The position numbers were made by a program, and so were the translations under genes. From positions 1,110 to 65,109 of the forward strand of contig JBOIDC010000011.1 in NCBI GenBank assembly GCA_050740315.1: a DNA stretch of 64,000 nt, read 5' to 3'. This document shows positions 9,226 through 37,976 of this stretch, one piece after another (the stretch's first letter is position 1; each line of letters opens with the position of its first letter). This DNA is from Gammaproteobacteria bacterium. GTDB taxonomy: Bacteria > Pseudomonadota > Gammaproteobacteria > JACCYU01. The notes beneath the pieces are model-generated. The model searched no databases, had not been told where the DNA came from, and was given only the letters and a program-made list of their open reading frames with translations.

Positions 9226-10617
9226 ATGGCGCGCATGGCCGCGTTCCCCCGCATGAGCTGGTGGGAGACGCTGCGCGTCTATCGGCATCCGCGGGTAGTG
9301 GCGATGCTGTTTCTGGGCTTTTCGGCCGGGCTACCGTTTCTGCTGGTGTTTTCCACGTTGTCGGCGTGGCTGTCGGACGCGCAGGTGAGCCACAGCGCGA
9401 TCGGTTTCTTCAGCTGGGTCGGCATCACCTATTCGATCAAGGTGCTGTGGTCGCCGGTGGTCGATCGGCTGCCGATCCCGTGGCTGACGCGAAAGCTTGG
9501 CAAGCGGCGCAGCTGGATGCTGATGGCGCAAGCCGCCGTCGCCCTGGGTTTGCTGGGCATGGCGTTGATCGACCCCGCGCAGCAGCTGACCTACGTGGCC
9601 GCGTTCGCGCTGCTGGTTGCGTTCGGCTCGGCCACGCAGGACGTCGCGATCGACGCGTATCGCATCGAGGCGGTAATAAAAGAGCGGCAAGCCGCGATGG
9701 CCGCAACGTACATTCTCGGCTACCGCGTGGCGCTGCTGGTCGCCGGCGCCGGCGCGCTTTACATCGCTGAATTTGGTTCCTGGCCCGCGGCGTACATCGC
9801 CATGGCCGCGCTGATGTCGGTCGGCATGATCACCGTGCTGGTGATCGCGGAGCCAGTGCAGACCGTTGGTCGCGACGCTTATCAGCGCGAAGCGCGCGTG
9901 ATTGCGTTCATGGAACGCTCGGCGCATCTGCCACCGCGGTTGCGCGGCGCGATGGCGTGGTTCATCGGCGCGGTCGTGTGCCCGTTCGTGGATTTCTTCG
10001 CGCGCAACGGCGCGATGGCGCTCGTGATCCTGCTGTTCATCGGCGTGTTTCGCGTGGCTGACATCACCATGGGCGTAATGGCCAACCCGTTTTATCTGGA
10101 CCTGGGTTTCAGCAAGGCGGAGATTGCCAGCGTCACCAAGGTGTTCGGGTTTTTTATGACCATCGCCGGCGCGGCCGCCGGCGGTCTGCTGGTGGTGCGC
10201 TACGGCATCATGCGACCTTTGCTGCTGGGTGCCGTGCTGGCGGCGGCAACCAATCTGCTGTTCTCCCTGATGGCGGTAACCGGGCCGGACTTGTCGCTGC
10301 TGACGGTAACGATCAGCGCCGACAACCTGGTCGGCGGCCTGGCGGGCTCGGTGTTCATCGCGTATCTCTCCAGCCTCACCAACACGGCATATACCGCTAC
10401 ACAATATGCCCTGTTCAGCTCGCTGATGACCTTGCCGGGCAAGTTTATCGGCGGCTTCTCCGGCCTTGTCGTCGAGGCCCAGGGTTATTTTATCTTCTTC
10501 ATCTATTCAGCCCTCGTCGGCGTGCCGGCCATACTGCTGGTGCTGTATCTGATGCGCACGGCCAATGCCGACGGCGCTCGTACGAGTATCGCGCACGCAC
10601 AAAAGAGTCGCGTTTGA
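9226..10617 (+). CDS. ampG: AmpG muropeptide MFS permease. The start may be the ATG at 9253 (MSWWETL).
   Basis: MSWWETLRVYRHPRVVAMLFLGFSAGLPFLLVFSTLSAWL...FSWVGITYSIKVLWSPVVDR and about 12 TM segments. Confidence 0.85.
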   Translation: MARMAAFPRMSWWETLRVYRHPRVVAMLFLGFSAGLPFLLVFSTLSAWLSDAQVSHSAIGFFSWVGITYSIKVLWSPVVDRLPIPWLTRKLGKRRSWMLMAQAAVALGLLGMALIDPAQQLTYVAAFALLVAFGSATQDVAIDAYRIEAVIKERQAAMAATYILGYRVALLVAGAGALYIAEFGSWPAAYIAMAALMSVGMITVLVIAEPVQTVGRDAYQREARVIAFMERSAHLPPRLRGAMAWFIGAVVCPFVDFFARNGAMALVILLFIGVFRVADITMGVMANPFYLDLGFSKAEIASVTKVFGFFMTIAGAAAGGLLVVRYGIMRPLLLGAVLAAATNLLFSLMAVTGPDLSLLTVTISADNLVGGLAGSVFIAYLSSLTNTAYTATQYALFSSLMTLPGKFIGGFSGLVVEAQGYFIFFIYSALVGVPAILLVLYLMRTANADGARTSIAHAQKSRV

Positions 10618-10648
10618 CTTAGTTGAGTTTATGGTTCAGTATCAAACC

Positions 10649-10894
10649 ATGATCAAATTGAACGTCCATGAAGCTAAAACGCATCTATCCAGTTACCTCG
10701 CGCGGCTGGAGGCTGGCGAGACGATTCTGCTGTGCCGGCGCAATGTCCCTATCGCCGAAATCCGGCCCCTGACGGCGCCGCGATCCGATCCTCGTCCGAT
10801 AGGATTGGCCAAAGACACGTTTGCCGTTCCCGCATCGTTCTTCGAGCCCTTGCCTGAGGAAGAGATCGAGGCTTTCGAAGGGCGGCATGCGTGA
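10649..10894 (+). CDS. Phd/YefM-type antitoxin (type II toxin-antitoxin system).
   Basis: MIKLNVHEAKTHLSSYLARLEAGETILLCRRNVPIAEIRPL. Its stop overlaps the start of the downstream PIN gene (ATGA at 10891-10894). Confidence 0.8.
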   Translation: MIKLNVHEAKTHLSSYLARLEAGETILLCRRNVPIAEIRPLTAPRSDPRPIGLAKDTFAVPASFFEPLPEEEIEAFEGRHA

Positions 10895-11277
10895 GGCTAT
10901 TGCTGGATACGTGCACCTTCCTGTGGATCATAACCAACGCGGCAGAACTGAGTGACAGCGCCCGCGCGCGGTTCATGGATGCGGACAATGACGTATACCT
11001 GAGCGCCCTATCGGCGTGGGAAATTGCGGTCAAGCACAGGCTGGGAAAGCTGCCGCTGCCCGCTCCGGCCGAGCAATTCGTCGCCCAAGAGCGCGTGCAA
11101 CACGGCATCGAAAGCCTTGCGGTCGACGAAGCTGCAACGACGCATCTTTATCGGCTGCCGCCGCTGCATCGCGATCCGTTCGACCGCATGCTGGTCTGTC
11201 AGGCCATCGAACACGGCCTGGCGATCGTTACGCCAGACGCCCTGATTACACAGTATCCGGTGCGCACGGTCTGGTAA
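10891..11277 (+). CDS. vapC: VapC-type PIN-domain toxin.
   Basis: LLDTCTFLWIITN...SAWEIAVKHRLGKL...DPFDRMLVCQAIEHGLAIVTPDALITQYPV shows the PIN acidic residues and the characteristic C-terminus. Confidence 0.85.
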   Translation: MRLLLDTCTFLWIITNAAELSDSARARFMDADNDVYLSALSAWEIAVKHRLGKLPLPAPAEQFVAQERVQHGIESLAVDEAATTHLYRLPPLHRDPFDRMLVCQAIEHGLAIVTPDALITQYPVRTVW

Positions 11278-26428: not shown

Positions 26429-27625
26429 TCACTCTTCAGCGGGAGTCGCCGTGTTCGTTTGGCGCAGGCCTTGCCTGCTACACATCTTGCTCAGCGCCTC
26501 CAGCAGTGTGTCGATATGCGCCTGGGTATGCGCCGCCGAGAGCGTGATGCGCAGGCGCGCGCTGCCTGTGGGCACGGTGGGCGGGCGGATGGCGGTGATG
26601 AGCAGGCCTCGAGCGAATAGCGCGTCGCTGATTGCCGTGGCTCTCGCGGCGTCGCCGATGATCAGCGGCTGGATAGGCGTGTGGCTTTGCGTTAACGGCA
26701 AGCTCAGCGTTTGCGCGCCGTCTCGGAAGCGTTCGATCAGACTGCGCAGTTTGTCTCTGCGCCACGTTTCCTGCTGTACCACACGCAGCGCCGCGCGTGC
26801 CGCCTCGGCCACCGCGGGCGGCGGGGCGGTGGTGTAGATGTACGTGCGCGCGCTCTGAATGAGCGTCTCGATCAGCGCCTCGCCACCGGCCACGAACGCG
26901 CCGAAGACGCCGAACGCCTTGCCCAGCGTGCCCATCAGTATCGGCACGCGCCGGTTCCCAACGCCCAGATGCTCCAAGGTGCCGCGCCCGCGGTCGCCCA
27001 GCACGCCCAGGCCGTGCGCGTCATCGACCATCAGCCAGGCATCGTGTTCATCGGCGACGTTCGCGAGGGCGTCAAGCGGCGCCGTGTCGCCGTCCATGCT
27101 GAAAACGCCGTCGGTCGCGATCAATTTTTCACCACTCGCACGGGTCGCAAGCTTGCGGCTCAAGCGCTGAGTATCGCGGTGCGGATAACGCACAAGACGC
27201 GCGCCGGACAGCAATCCGGCGTCCAGCAGCGAGGCGTGGTTGAAGCGATCCTGAAAAATCGCGTCGCCGCGCCCGACCAGCGCCGAGATCACGCCCAGGT
27301 TCGCCATGTAGCCGGTCGAGAAAAGCAACGCGCGCGCGCGGCCGGTGTATGTGGCAAGTTCTTCTTCCAGCGCGTGATGCGCGCGAGAGTGGCCGTTGAC
27401 CAAATGTGCCGCGCCGCTGCCCACACCGTACTCATCGGCCGCCTTTTTGAACGCGGCGACGACCTCGGCATGATTGGCCAGCCCCAGATAATCGTTGCTG
27501 CAAAACGACAGCACCCGTTTGCCGTCGATGAACTGCTCCGGCCCTTGCGGCCCCTCGGCGATGCGCCGGGCGCGGTAAAGCCCAACCGTGCGGCGCCGCT
27601 TCAGTGGGGCGTGCAAGTCTCTCAT
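26429..27625 (-). CDS. bioF: 8-amino-7-oxononanoate synthase.
   Basis: SNDYLGL...PLP-fold aminotransferase class II, with the TLGKAFG lysine motif. Confidence 0.88.
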   Translation of the reverse strand: MRDLHAPLKRRRTVGLYRARRIAEGPQGPEQFIDGKRVLSFCSNDYLGLANHAEVVAAFKKAADEYGVGSGAAHLVNGHSRAHHALEEELATYTGRARALLFSTGYMANLGVISALVGRGDAIFQDRFNHASLLDAGLLSGARLVRYPHRDTQRLSRKLATRASGEKLIATDGVFSMDGDTAPLDALANVADEHDAWLMVDDAHGLGVLGDRGRGTLEHLGVGNRRVPILMGTLGKAFGVFGAFVAGGEALIETLIQSARTYIYTTAPPPAVAEAARAALRVVQQETWRRDKLRSLIERFRDGAQTLSLPLTQSHTPIQPLIIGDAARATAISDALFARGLLITAIRPPTVPTGSARLRITLSAAHTQAHIDTLLEALSKMCSRQGLRQTNTATPAEE

Positions 27626-27678
27626 GCGGATTTCGCTTGCGCTATTGACAAAAGACGTCTGGACGTCCAGGATTCCTG

Positions 27679-28861
27679 CATGCCAAAAAATGATGCAAGA
27701 TGTTTACCGGGCCAGGTACGTGATGCCATCGTTCATGTCTTGACCGACGCTGCGAAAGCGCTGTCTGTAAAGGAAATCGAGCAACGGGTTCAGCAGATCA
27801 TCGGGCCCACGCCGAAGTCTTCTATCAGATCGTATCTCAGACTGAACACCCCTGATCTCTTCGTGCGCGAGGACAGAGGCGTGTACCGCTCGCGGCAAAG
27901 CACGCCGCCGCACAGGCAGCGTGATCTCCCCTCATTGGAGCCTGGAGAGCCGCCCTATACGCTTGGCGATGTCACCATGTTCCACGCCGATTGCTTTCAG
28001 TGGCTCGAACAACAGCCGGCAGACTCGTTTCATGCGATTGTCACTGATCCGCCTTACGGATTGCATGAATATACACCGGAACAACAGGCAAAATTGCGGG
28101 TTGGTAAGGGCGGCGTATGGAGGATCCCGCCTGCCTTTGATGGGCATAAGCGCGCCCCGCTGCCTCGTTTTACAACATTGACCGGCAACCAGATTGAGGA
28201 ATTGCGTGATTTTTTTCTGCTATGGACGCGGTCGCTGCTGCCAAAGCTTGTGCCGGGCGCACACGTGATCGTTGCCTCCAACCCTTTGATGTCGCACGTG
28301 GTCGCGTGGGCGCTGGCCGCCGGCGGCCTCGAAAGGCGCGGAGAAGTCATTCGCCTGACTATGACCATGCGCGGCGGTGATCGTCCGAAAGCCGCACACG
28401 CGGAGTTTCCGGGGGTAAGCGTCCTTCCAAGGTCGATGTGGGAGCCTTGGCTTATCTATCGGAAGCCAATAGAGGGTCGGGTTCAAGATAACTTGAGGAA
28501 ATGGAAAACCGGGGGCTTTCGGCGGCCATCACTCGTTAAACCGTTTGGCGACGTTATTCCCTCCGCGCCGACTCGGAGCTCAGAGCGGAAGCTGGCACCG
28601 CATCCAAGCCTTAAACCTCAAGCGTTTCTTCGAGAAGTAGTTCGCGCATCGCTGCCGTTGGGTGAGGGCGTAGTGTTGGATCCGTTTGCCGGCGCGGGAT
28701 CGACGCTTGCCGCCTGTCTGGCGGTCGGCTACTCGGGGGTGGGGATAGAAAAAGACGCTTACTATTTCAAGATGGCGTGCGAGTCCATTCCAAGGCTTGC
28801 CGCGTACAAAGGAAACGGCTCCGCTAAAGCTTATACAGCCAATTCTCTCGAAGTCTTCTAA
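27679..28861 (+). CDS. DNA methyltransferase, beta-class (motif IV DPPY precedes motif I), probably N6-adenine, with an N-terminal ~95-aa extension.
   Basis: AIVTDPPYGL comes N-terminal to DPFAGAGSTLAA (FxGxG). The true start is the ATG at 27679 (MPKNDARCLPGQ). The 26711..27678 part of the track ORF is bioF antisense. AT-richer than the bio genes. Confidence 0.8.
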
Positions 28862-29447
28862 TTCCTTCCTTGTGCAGTGTTGCGGTCCTTGTGCCAAGCT
28901 CGCCGCGGGCGTTCTTTCGGAAATCTTCCGTTGCTACCCGGCCCAAATAGACTTCCGTAAATGCCATCGGCAGCCGGTTGGATGCAGGCTCAGTCTCCAG
29001 GTCGATCTGATAAACAAATACGCACATCCACTGGTTGCGCGCGCCGTGTGTATCGACCGCGCCGCCACGCTTCCTCGTGGTCTTGATTTCGATACCCTCC
29101 GTGCCGGCCTTGGCAGCATTGCCGGGATAGATGCCTTGCACAACGAGATCGGGATGTCCATTGAAGTAAGTATTCTCCGTCAGCGCTCGCGCGTGTTTGG
29201 CTAAGCTTGCAGTGAGCATGTCAGATAACACACCAGACATAATCGCGGGACGCAGCATGTCGTCCAGACGCTGCAATCCCTTGCCGGTTAAATGGCTGTT
29301 CACGTCGAAGAAGAAGTGGTATGCGTCCTGCAGCGCAAGCTGGAAATCCTCCAGCCGCAGTTCATACGGCAACGTCAACGCGCGATTGAAAGCTTTATGC
29401 CTGACAGTGTTTCTTACAATCGGCATGTGTTCCGCTGTGATCGGCAC
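28824..29447 (-). CDS. Putative Type II restriction endonuclease (PD-(D/E)xK), about 208 aa. The start is uncertain (GTG at 29447, ATG at 29426, or TTG at 29456).
   Basis: ...NGHPDLVVQGIYPGNAAKAGTEGIEIKTTRK has PD, 19 aa, then ExK. It converges on the methyltransferase with a ~38-nt 3' overlap and immediately follows ecsC on the same strand. Confidence 0.55.
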   Translation of the reverse strand: MPITAEHMPIVRNTVRHKAFNRALTLPYELRLEDFQLALQDAYHFFFDVNSHLTGKGLQRLDDMLRPAIMSGVLSDMLTASLAKHARALTENTYFNGHPDLVVQGIYPGNAAKAGTEGIEIKTTRKRGGAVDTHGARNQWMCVFVYQIDLETEPASNRLPMAFTEVYLGRVATEDFRKNARGELGTRTATLHKEGIRRLRENWLYKL

Positions 29448-29452
29448 TAACG

Positions 29453-30232
29453 TCAAAATCGCTCGTACGTCGTTCTGACCGTAGCTCGATCGTATTTCCG
29501 TTCCAGGCGCCGGATCATGAAATGTCCGCGCGCGATATCCTGATAGTGGTCGATGAACAGCACGTTGACGACCGCGCCGCCCGCGGCGCCGATAATGGGC
29601 AAGGCCTGCGCCGCCACCTTTTCGGACACCACCATGCCGAAGCGGGACGCGATCTGCGTGATGAACCGCACCAGCGCGGGCGCGCCCTGTCGCGCGACGC
29701 CTTTTCGCGCGATGTGCTGCGCCGCTTCCGCCAGCACCTGTTGCAGTGCGGCGCGCACCGCGAAATAGCCCGTCTCGGTGGCGTCGTCTGACGTTGTGCG
29801 GCCGCCAAGGGCAAAGACCTCGATGCAGGCAAGCATGGATTCCGGTGTCCCGATCAGTTCGCCCTCACTGCGCGCGACATCCGCGATTGACCGCAGCATC
29901 ACGACTGTGGAAATCGGCAGTTCCACCGGCAGGCCGGCCAGCCCGAACGCACCGCCGCCCGCGCCGGTGCCCGCCACGACGAGCTTGTGCAAGAGATTGG
30001 ACGGCGGCCGCAACGCGCGCCGATTCAGGCTCGTGACCGCAAGCCGCAACGCCTTTTCAAGCGCCACGCGCGTCGAGTGATTGACGATCTCCGCGGCCGA
30101 AGCAGGCAATAATTTGAGTCCCTGTTCGATCGGCGTGCCCAGCGCGTTCGCGATCCTGGCGGCCAGGCTCGGATTTTCGAGCAGGGCCCGGGCATCCCGC
30201 AGCGTTTCCAGATCTTCGTCGGACAGGATCAC
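29453..30232 (-). CDS. EcsC-family protein.
   Basis: ...GAGGGAFGLAGLPVELPISTVVMLRSIADVARSEGE... resembles the EcsC family. Its stop lies 1-6 nt from the nuclease start. Confidence 0.55.
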   Translation of the reverse strand: MILSDEDLETLRDARALLENPSLAARIANALGTPIEQGLKLLPASAAEIVNHSTRVALEKALRLAVTSLNRRALRPPSNLLHKLVVAGTGAGGGAFGLAGLPVELPISTVVMLRSIADVARSEGELIGTPESMLACIEVFALGGRTTSDDATETGYFAVRAALQQVLAEAAQHIARKGVARQGAPALVRFITQIASRFGMVVSEKVAAQALPIIGAAGGAVVNVLFIDHYQDIARGHFMIRRLERKYDRATVRTTYERF

Positions 30233-35489: not shown

Positions 35490-36500
<1,011 letters not shown>

Positions 36501-36695
36501 CTATGGCGGCAGGGCGGCCGCACGTCACTTCATGAACGTGTACCGCCCGAAACGAGATATCGTGCTCCAAGAATAGCGAACATCCGCGGTGGTTTCGAGC
36601 GGCGACCGGACCGCATCCAAACGCCTGGCGTCGCCGTACCAGAGTGTGTGAGATATGATGCTCGATGCCAACCCATTTTCTACAGGAGATGCAAC

Positions 36696-36958
36696 ATGAG
36701 CAAGAAATCGACGATGAAACCGCTGGCGGCCGCCATCGGTACCGCTGTCGTCGCCTCTCTGGTGTCCGTTTCTTTATGTGCAGGCCGACCAGAATCCGTT
36801 TGGCATGAGCAAGCTTTCCAGTGGATATATGGTTGCTGATCATGGCGAGGGGAAGTGCGGAGAAGGCAAATGCGGCGAGGGCAAGAAAGGCGAGGGGAAA
36901 TGCGGAGAAGATAAAAAAGGTAAGTGCGGCGAAGGTAAATGCGGCGAGGGTGCGTAGG
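36696..36958 (+). CDS. Small secreted Cys-repeat peptide, HvfA-like candidate RiPP metallophore precursor. Signal peptide and repeats are in different frames (+1 at the T-run near 36768-36775).
   Basis: AGGAG lies 7 nt upstream of the ATG at 36696. Frame A gives MSKKSTMKPLAAAIGTAVVASLVSVS.... The +1 frame gives YVQADQNPFGMSKLSSGYMVADHGEGKCGEGKCGEGKKGEGKCGEDKKGKCGEGKCGEGA* and ends at 36958. Deleting one T restores one 86-aa protein with a VQA|D signal-peptidase site. Confidence 0.6.
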
Positions 36959-36981
36959 CCACGATCTTGCCTCCTCTATTA

Positions 36982-37008
36982 GGCATCCCGCCCACGCGGC
37001 GGGGTGCC
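36982..37008. terminator. GC-rich 11-bp stem-loop between the peptide gene and hemF (convergent). No U-tract.
   Basis: GGCATCCCGCC-CACGC-GGCGGGGTGCC, with one G.U pair. Confidence 0.3.
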
Positions 37009-37049
37009 TGAATAGCAAACGTGTGGCACCTCCCCGCTTGATGTAAGTG

Positions 37050-37976
37050 TCAGCGCAACCAATCTCTCGGGCGCAGAAAATCTTCGTACAGGCGCGCTTC
37101 CACGCTATCCGGCGCGGGCTGCCAGTTGTACTTCCATTGAACGCGCGGCGGCAATGACATCAAGATCGATTCGGTACGCCCGCCGGATTGCAGACCGAAC
37201 AGCGTGCCGCGGTCGTAGACCAGATTGAACTCGACGTAGCGCCCGCGCCGATAAAGCTGAAACTCGCGCTGCCTGCGCCCAAAGCTCGAATGCTTACGGC
37301 GTTGCACGATCGGCAGGTAGGCCGGCAAAAAATGGTCACCTACGCTGCGCAAGAACGCAAAGCAGCTTGCAAACCCCCATTCGTTGAGGTCGTCGAAAAA
37401 CAGCCCGCCGATTCCACGCGGCTCATCTCGGTGCTTCAGATAAAAATATTCGTCGGCCCATTTCTTGTAGCGTGGATAGACGTCTTCCCCGTATGGCTGG
37501 CAGGCCTGCCGCGCCGTCCTATGCCAGTGGGCAGCATCTTCTTCGAAGCCGTAATAAGGTGTCAGATCGAAGCCGCCGCCGAACCACCACACCGGCTCGA
37601 CGTGCGGTTTGCGCGCGATGAAGAACCGCACGTTGGCGTGCGCGGTAGGAATGTACGGATTGCGCGGGTGGACCACCACCGAAACGCCCATCGCCTGAAA
37701 GTCCCGGCCAATCAGTTCAGGCCGATGAGCGGTGGCCGCCGGTGGCAGCTTTTCCCCGCGCACGTGTGAAAACGCGGTGCCGGCCTGTTCGAACACGCGG
37801 CCCGCGGAAAGCGCGCGCGTACGCCCACCGCCGGCCGTCCGTTGCCAGGCATCTTCGGCGAATCGCGCCTTGGGCTCTTCGCGTTCGAATGCGGCGCAGA
37901 TGCGATCCTGCAGCGAGAGCAGATAGCCTTCGACCGCTTGCGGTTCGGGTCGAACTGAGTCGCTATCGATCTGCAT
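37050..37976 (-). CDS. hemF: Oxygen-dependent coproporphyrinogen-III oxidase.
   Basis: ...GGGRTRAL...[11 protein letters not shown]...[12 protein letters not shown]. Confidence 0.92.

Follow-up and report, generated by a model that had tools for sequence, protein, structure and literature searches.

In the window, that is, the whole 64-kb stretch of DNA that was analysed, the gene for a short cysteine-repeat peptide lies between hemB and hemF (Table 1), a location that had been proposed in a preliminary description of the sequence and that agrees with the PF00490 and PF01218 gene calls and with the NCBI names of both neighbours. Frame 0 opens at ATG 36696 with MSKKSTMKPLAAAIGTAVVASLVSVS, continues as LCAGRPESVWHEQAFQWIYGC and ends with a stop codon at 36837-36839. 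In the +1 frame the sequence is (Y)VQADQNPFGMSKLSSGYMVADHGEGKCGEGKCGEGKKGEGKCGEDKKGKCGEGKCGEGA, i.e. ...YVQADQNPFGMSKLSSGYMVADHGEGKCGEGKCGEGKKGEGKCGEDKKGKCGEGKCGEGA, with its stop at 36955-36957; the end coordinate of 36958 given earlier is therefore one base too far. When one T is dropped from the TTT run at 36773-36775 (any of the three) both frames fuse into a single ORF of 86 aa. The main lines of the preliminary description are thus present in the sequence: AGGAG and ATG 36696 open a signal peptide, this frame ends at 36839 while the +1 frame carries the repeats, and removal of a single T yields the 86-aa protein. It also counted five tandem EGKCG units, of which only four are exact, the fifth being KGKCG; the precursor therefore has five Cys residues. 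At the DNA level, Tandem Repeats Finder gave two rows with a period of 15 (36844-36905 and 36917-36951).

Table 1. Position of the precursor gene, its neighbours and associated sequence elements in the window.
Feature	Position	Strand	Evidence or remark
hemB, porphobilinogen synthase, divergent upstream neighbour	35490..36491	-	PF00490; MGH8501677.1
Conserved upstream block GCATCCAAAC...CGCCGTA...GTGTGAGATATGATG, candidate promoter/regulatory region	36613..36660	+	alignment A4
Shine-Dalgarno AGGAG	36684..36688	+	7 nt 5' of ATG; also in relatives
Sec-type signal peptide MSKKSTMKPLAAAIGTAVVASLVSVS, ancestral codons 1-26	36696..36773	+	tblastn of fused residues 1-26, 100%
Present-day ORF, 47 aa: signal peptide, 21 out-of-frame residues, stop	36696..36839	+	
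TTT run with inserted T (frameshift site)	36773..36775	+	comparison with relatives
+1-frame rest: YVQA/DQNPFGMSKLSSGYMVADH, (E)GKCG repeats, five Cys, stop TAG 36955-36957	36775..36957	+	
15-nt tandem DNA repeats coding GEGKC units	36844..36951	+	Tandem Repeats Finder
GC-rich hairpin between convergent precursor and hemF, without U-tract	36977..37014		fold of 36955-37030
hemF, oxygen-dependent coproporphyrinogen oxidase, convergent downstream neighbour	37050..37976	-	PF01218; MGH8501680.1

In alignment A2 the first 26 residues fall on the signal peptides of 39 homologues, and the cleavage site VQA/D of the reconstructed protein matches the ANA/D and VQA/D sites of relatives. Judging by these sequence features and by homology, the reconstructed ORF is predicted to have an N-terminal Sec signal peptide by descent. 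A lipoprotein reading of the frameshift product (...VSLC AG) was rejected, the residue at position -1 being Leu, which does not fit a lipobox. In the window and in two other assemblies (L006 and L007) alike, the signal peptide and the Cys-repeat core are not in one ORF. The GenBank product at this place is a 47-aa hypothetical protein, ACREVE_04245 (MGH8501678.1), annotated on a 66,728-bp contig with no pseudogene label, and it corresponds to the broken 5' portion of a metallophore precursor gene of the HvfA family. No gene was called at the precursor site in L006 and L007, and neither the 59-aa nor the 47-aa ORF had an exact match in the contig index.

The assignment to the HvfA type made in the preliminary description was upheld by the curated domain model NCBIfam NF050137 (KCGExKCG_twice; cut-off 19.5 bits), named by NCBI 'HvfA family oxazolone/thioamide-modified RiPP metallophore', which gave 31.1 bits with the fused 86-aa protein and 39.2 bits with the +1-frame ORF of 59 aa. 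The equivalog NF050188, which represents HvfA proper, scored 37.3 bits against a cut-off of 95, and the protein therefore belongs to the same broad family but is not HvfA itself. A Pfam scan of the precursor matched no model. The search of 5.8 billion proteins returned 1826 homologues at E<=1e-3 (top E 1e-41), the three best with 92%, 88% and 86% identity over 98-99% of the query; among the matches listed the homologues are single-frame and mostly 80-150 aa long, and one of them (P0003) carries the same NCBI family name. The 40 members of alignment A2 share the signal peptide, an A(D/E)xNPF...LSSGYM segment and EGKCGEGKCG repeats of varying count. In this alignment Ala30, Pro34, Phe35, Gly43 and Tyr44 are invariant, and Asn33, Leu40, Ser41 and Met45 are at least 90% conserved. 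The locus thus belongs to the HvfA / Buf_EGKCG / 'captophorin' family, as a gene for a peptide with EGKCG repeats and Sec export.

Two features of this family were observed in passing. Some homologues (P0023, P0044, P0048 and others) contain EF-hand calcium-binding domains between EGKCG arrays, and the matching Buf_EGKCG/EF-hand_5 type is already described in an earlier report (PMC12452194). The antisense strand of the EGKCG repeats (minus strand, 36840-36995 in the window, and likewise at many loci) yields long low-complexity ORFs of the PHLPSPHLPS type, which cluster across loci as a family would; they are artefacts and could mislead ORF-based surveys.

The central 21 kb of the window has the order rsmB-fmt-def / LysM-dprA-smg-topA-tsaC-hemF / precursor / hemB-aroE / gor / ubiA ... 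greA. HMMs for MNIO (formerly DUF692), DUF2063 and DoxX, built from the neighbours of family members (65, 62 and 31 sequences, respectively, with identity confirmed by Pfam), found none of the three in the six-frame translation of the 64 kb, the top E value being 0.49. Pfam scans of about 40 window ORFs, and the gene calls of the identical contig, gave housekeeping functions only, with no PF05114, PF09836 or PF07681; the scanned ORFs include an Mrp antiporter, GGDEF/EAL proteins, argB, dut, coaBC, radC, hisBHAF and tatC, and a two-component sigma-54 regulatory pair is also encoded. Both scans bear out the earlier statement that the 64 kb hold no DUF692, DUF2063 or DoxX gene. Elsewhere in the window, about 1.8 kb (~27626-29456) is extra with respect to L001 and L091, where EcsC adjoins the aminotransferase; L006 has the same extra stretch. 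It holds a 210-aa ORF on the minus strand (28824-29456) with no Pfam match and, on the plus strand, an N6_N4 DNA-methylase domain (residues 441-689 of ORF 26711-28861, ~28031-28778), across which no gene is called; it may represent a methylase island that is orphan or degraded. At 10891-11277 a PIN-domain (VapC-like) ORF follows the small ORF 10565-10894, with which it overlaps, and 10565-11277 is a probable VapBC toxin-antitoxin pair.

Linkage to the modification genes was surveyed in 80 species-level genomes. An MNIO gene lies directly 3' of the precursor in 66 of the 80 family loci from other species; DUF2063 usually comes next, and in many cases DoxX. The locus of precursor P0008 (L093; 68% identical) likewise has MNIO directly downstream. 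Stand-alone loci with full flanks are L009, L026 and L070, and DoxX is the only partner at L045, L050 and L069. The highest identity that any MNIO-bearing locus showed to the window in shared housekeeping genes was 64%, so that none of these loci belongs to a close relative. According to PMC12452194, sizeable proportions of Buf1 and Buf2 precursors are unlinked to MNIO genes, and stand-alone precursor genes are charted among the gene organisations of all three families, EGKCG included. Unlinked precursors being accepted in that text, the MNIO cluster is to be regarded as typical rather than strictly defining. The preliminary description had called the gene an orphan; no partner gene occurs in the 64 kb, but since stand-alone precursors are described in the same paper (PMC12452194) this status was overstated.

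In more distant lineages some stand-alone precursors were seen beside hemB with an ECF sigma factor region upstream (L027:5046-6351, L036:8444-9647 and L049:8765-9963). The sigma factor (Sigma70_r2/r4_2) was confirmed in L036 and L049 and assigned by position in L027, and a DUF3379 gene after it was confirmed in L027 and L036 only; an ECF sigma factor is upstream in L069 as well. These loci with an ECF sigma factor and DUF3379 suggest a dedicated sigma/anti-sigma control of unlinked precursors. In another genome, Gammaproteobacteria bacterium BRH_c0, a DoxX-only locus (L050, LADM01000132.1) is found together with a full MNIO-DUF2063 cluster (L063, LADM01000133.1). It offers a concrete case of an unlinked precursor coexisting with the enzymes; with the unlinked precursors reported in PMC12452194 and the processing of short EGKCG-type peptides by FonBC (10.1101/2025.11.18.689057), it makes modification in trans plausible.

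In six relatives (P0001/L088, P0012/L089-90, P0002/L003, P0003/L001, P0005/L092 and P0016/L091) an intact precursor adjoins hemF, with hemB on the other side in five of them. MNIO, DUF2063 and DoxX were absent within 10 kb of the precursor in L001 and L091. Throughout this group of uncultured Gammaproteobacteria the precursor stands alone as a one-gene unit, with hemB divergent on one side and hemF convergent on the other. Over the first 48 codons, dN/dS values were 0.02-0.08 for pairs with dS of 0.8-2.2; the unlinked gene is under purifying selection and is therefore functional in the clade.

Outside the coding region, the 48-nt block listed in Table 1 is the sole strongly conserved part of the hemB-precursor intergenic region in seven lineages. 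Its motif, placed about 80 nt 5' of the ATG, is present solely in the hemB/hemF-linked clade and absent upstream of other family members. The block may be a clade-specific promoter or operator, as judged from its conservation. A sigma-70 promoter scan of 36400-37150 found none, and an ECF-type promoter within the block was rejected on its AAC-to-CGT spacing, 6 or 12 nt compared with the usual 16-17. On the opposite side of the gene, the fold of 36955-37030 has an energy of -38.5 kcal/mol (z = -4.7) and the hairpin stem is kept in L088 and L089; in this model the hairpin is likely to act as a terminator or as an RNA-stabilising stem. The intrinsic-terminator scan of 36400-37150 called none, because no T-run follows the stem. 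The number of repeats is unstable, and close relatives have between 2 and 7 Cys. In P0012 (L089:541-732; 94-95% DNA identity) the array has shrunk to two Cys in a 63-aa precursor, compared with 5-7 in others, and the window array (36844-36951) lacks one 'EG' (6 nt) relative to L088. Units of this array are gained and lost rapidly.

The comparison with relatives also places the frame break exactly. The window reads GTTTCTTTATGTG at this site, in codons GTT TCT TTA TGT G. In L088 and L089, whose DNA is 94-95% identical, the same positions read GTTTC-TTATGTG (GTT TCT TAT GTG), and L090, at the same level of identity, likewise is without the extra T; in L003 and L001 (75-80% identical DNA) they read GTTTC-CTACGTG (GTT TCC TAC GTG). 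The difference is therefore a single T insertion, TT to TTT, after codon 26. The intact nearest relatives, at 86-95% protein identity, encode the reconstructed ...SVSYVQADQNPF... stretch, and P0001, P0002, P0003 and P0012 read ...SL(A/V)SVSYVQADQNPFGMS..., the exact product of the one-T repair; the repair suggested in the preliminary description, giving ...SVSYVQADQNPFGMS..., is thus correct. The same T is present in two further public assemblies of essentially the same organism: the Logan assembly SRR27067773, which is 100% identical to the window over 11,252 bp, and GCA_975322995.1, in which 21,002 bp differ by 2 SNPs (positions 36537 and 45741). The roughly 20 genes called around the precursor have their normal, full length, the A6 run of hemF is the same as in relatives, and all indels with respect to L088 are intergenic or in the precursor gene, none being in hemB or hemF. 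A further T-run difference was seen in the 5' UTR about 95 nt upstream of the frameshift, where TTTT at 36676-36679 in the window, L006 and L007 stands against TTT in the four closest relatives; the hemB-precursor intergenic region has non-homopolymer indels as well. Two mechanisms that act on homopolymers were considered and discarded on the length of the tract: transcriptional slippage, for which 3 nt is far too short, and phase variation, for which about 7 or more would be expected (TTT here, TT in relatives).

Current work on the family gives the context in which the intact gene may be understood. With about 2,000 proteins, the EGKCG precursors rank third in size among the families of MNIO substrates, and they have Sec signal peptides (PMC12452194). 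The Cys modification of oxazolin, and of other EGKCG peptides, is now assigned as 5-thiooxazole in place of the oxazolone/thioamide structure first reported, and the modified class has been named captophorins; its signature is a loss of 4 Da per Cys, absorbance at 305 nm and copper binding, and the products have been connected with copper stress and oxidative stress (10.1101/2025.11.18.689057; 10.64898/2025.12.15.693703). The oxazolone/thioamide chemistry cited in the preliminary description is this older, since revised assignment. Short peptides of the EGKCG type are processed by FonBC (10.1101/2025.11.18.689057).

The explanation that we regard as probable is that of a stand-alone EGKCG precursor, modified in trans in intact relatives and recently broken here by a real T insertion. 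In this family an MNIO with its DUF2063 partner converts the precursor cysteines to 5-thiooxazoles in the cytoplasm, and the product binds copper once exported. Here the modifying enzymes, if present, would have to be encoded elsewhere and act in trans; for the intact orthologues we infer modification in trans, export, cleavage after VQA and a role in copper binding. In this organism the T inserted after codon 26 (TCT TAT to TCT TTA T) would uncouple the signal peptide from the Cys-repeat core, and the gene would yield just the 47-aa product. With only a signal peptide and unrelated residues made, the gene is most likely a very recent, strain-level pseudogene, and the intact ribosome-binding site, upstream block and hairpin fit a very recent inactivation. 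The preliminary description had named three possible origins of the frame break. The best fit is a recent indel; a sequencing error is unlikely, and a programmed +1 shift is unsupported, because all relatives are in frame.

These alternatives bear on the insertion as follows. Were the extra T an artefact of sequencing or assembly, the organism would have an intact, stand-alone 86-aa EGKCG precursor; one base is gained within a T run, the remainder of the gene (ribosome-binding site, upstream block, repeats and stop) is intact, the second T-run difference at 36676-36679 could hint at a T-run error, and the window, L006 and L007 are near-identical and may share one read set or consensus error. 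However, the run is only 2 to 3 bases long, the change is seen in three different assemblies including a k-mer-based Logan contig, no other gene is broken among some 20 neighbours, the A6 runs match those of relatives, and the flanking coding sequence has no indels. An artefact is accordingly held unlikely, and a real mutation rather than an assembly error has a high probability in our estimate. Ribosomes might instead restore the preprotein by programmed +1 frameshifting or another recoding event at GUU UCU UUA UGU, where the rare UUA after UCU in a 61% GC genome could cause a pause and where a long overlap is open in both frames. The arrangement is not conserved, every syntenic relative and all listed homologues being single-frame, and inspection of the sequence revealed nothing recognisable as a shifty site (re-pairing of tRNA-Ser from UCU to CUU is impossible), nor an in-frame stop at this point or an internal Shine-Dalgarno stimulator of the prfB type; such recoding appears extremely improbable. 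It is very doubtful, too, that the +1-frame ORF is translated alone, from GTG 36778 or ATG 36805 to 36957, into a leaderless cytoplasmic Cys-repeat peptide with a new role, for example a metallothionein-like one: its 59-aa form with the GTG start still passes NF050137, but no Shine-Dalgarno sequence precedes GTG 36778 or the internal ATGs, its product is not on record as a gene in any assembly, the change is limited to one near-clonal lineage, and the family is defined by Sec export (PMC12452194).

Another alternative concerns the role of the peptide in the clade. The stand-alone peptide might work without MNIO modification as a periplasmic thiolate buffer for copper or other metals, in genomes that have no such enzymes. 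This agrees with the absence of MNIO, DUF2063 and DoxX from the 64 kb and from the 10 kb around the gene in L001 and L091, with the strong purifying selection that acts on the gene regardless, and with the distant stand-alone copies beside hemB, which are preceded not by enzymes but by genes for an ECF sigma factor and a DUF3379 protein. On the other hand, the NPF...SGYM segment and the EGKCG register are kept as in the cluster-linked precursor P0008/L093 (68% identity), which suggests that the same enzymes still recognise the peptide, and at least one genome (BRH_c0) has an unlinked copy together with a full cluster. A function without modification is for these reasons considered rather improbable, and a slightly lower chance still is given to the stronger proposal that the clade keeps a selected hemB/hemF EGKCG gene while lacking MNIO and DUF2063 genome-wide. 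If that were true, the function of EGKCG peptides would need no thiooxazole and could consist, for instance, in thiolate copper buffering that protects haem synthesis, with the frameshifted strain as a natural knockout.

The significance of the locus is modest; it reveals no new chemistry, mechanism or gene class. To work on captophorins and bufferins it contributes a documented clade, at least seven lineages in number, that has kept an EGKCG precursor between hemB and hemF as a single-gene unit. This clade is well suited for testing whether modification occurs in trans or whether the peptide works unmodified, and the frameshifted strain would be a natural variant with loss of function.

Among known systems, HvfA of Haemophilus influenzae, the oxazolin precursor of the hvfABC-doxX cluster represented by NF050188, shares the Sec signal peptide, the NPF...SGYM-type segment and the EGKCG repeats, and the alignment to its model spans residues 1-85 of the window protein. 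Unlike HvfA, the window gene has no adjacent hvfB, hvfC or doxX; it has five Cys and is frameshifted. The bufferins Buf1 (DUF2282) and Buf2 are likewise RiPP precursors with signal peptides, served by closely related MNIOs and with a role in copper stress, some of them under sigma and anti-sigma pairs, but their precursor fold and Cys pattern differ from those of the window protein, in which no DUF2282 match exists since Pfam gave no match. The Buf_EGKCG/oxazolin precursors and the stand-alone bufferin precursors treated in PMC12452194 comprise about 2,000 proteins, mostly from Pseudomonadota, with variable EGKCG counts and Sec signal peptides; a position between hemB and hemF that is kept throughout a clade is not described there, as far as the text consulted goes. 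The captophorins fontiphorin (FonA/FonBC), gonophorin and bulbicupramide are clustered with their enzymes and chemically characterised, whereas the window gene is unlinked, disrupted and known from sequence. They contain the same EGKCG repeat as a substrate of MNIO-PME1, and by this likeness the product expected of the window family is predicted to be a copper-binding 5-thiooxazole peptide (10.1101/2025.11.18.689057; PMC12538549).
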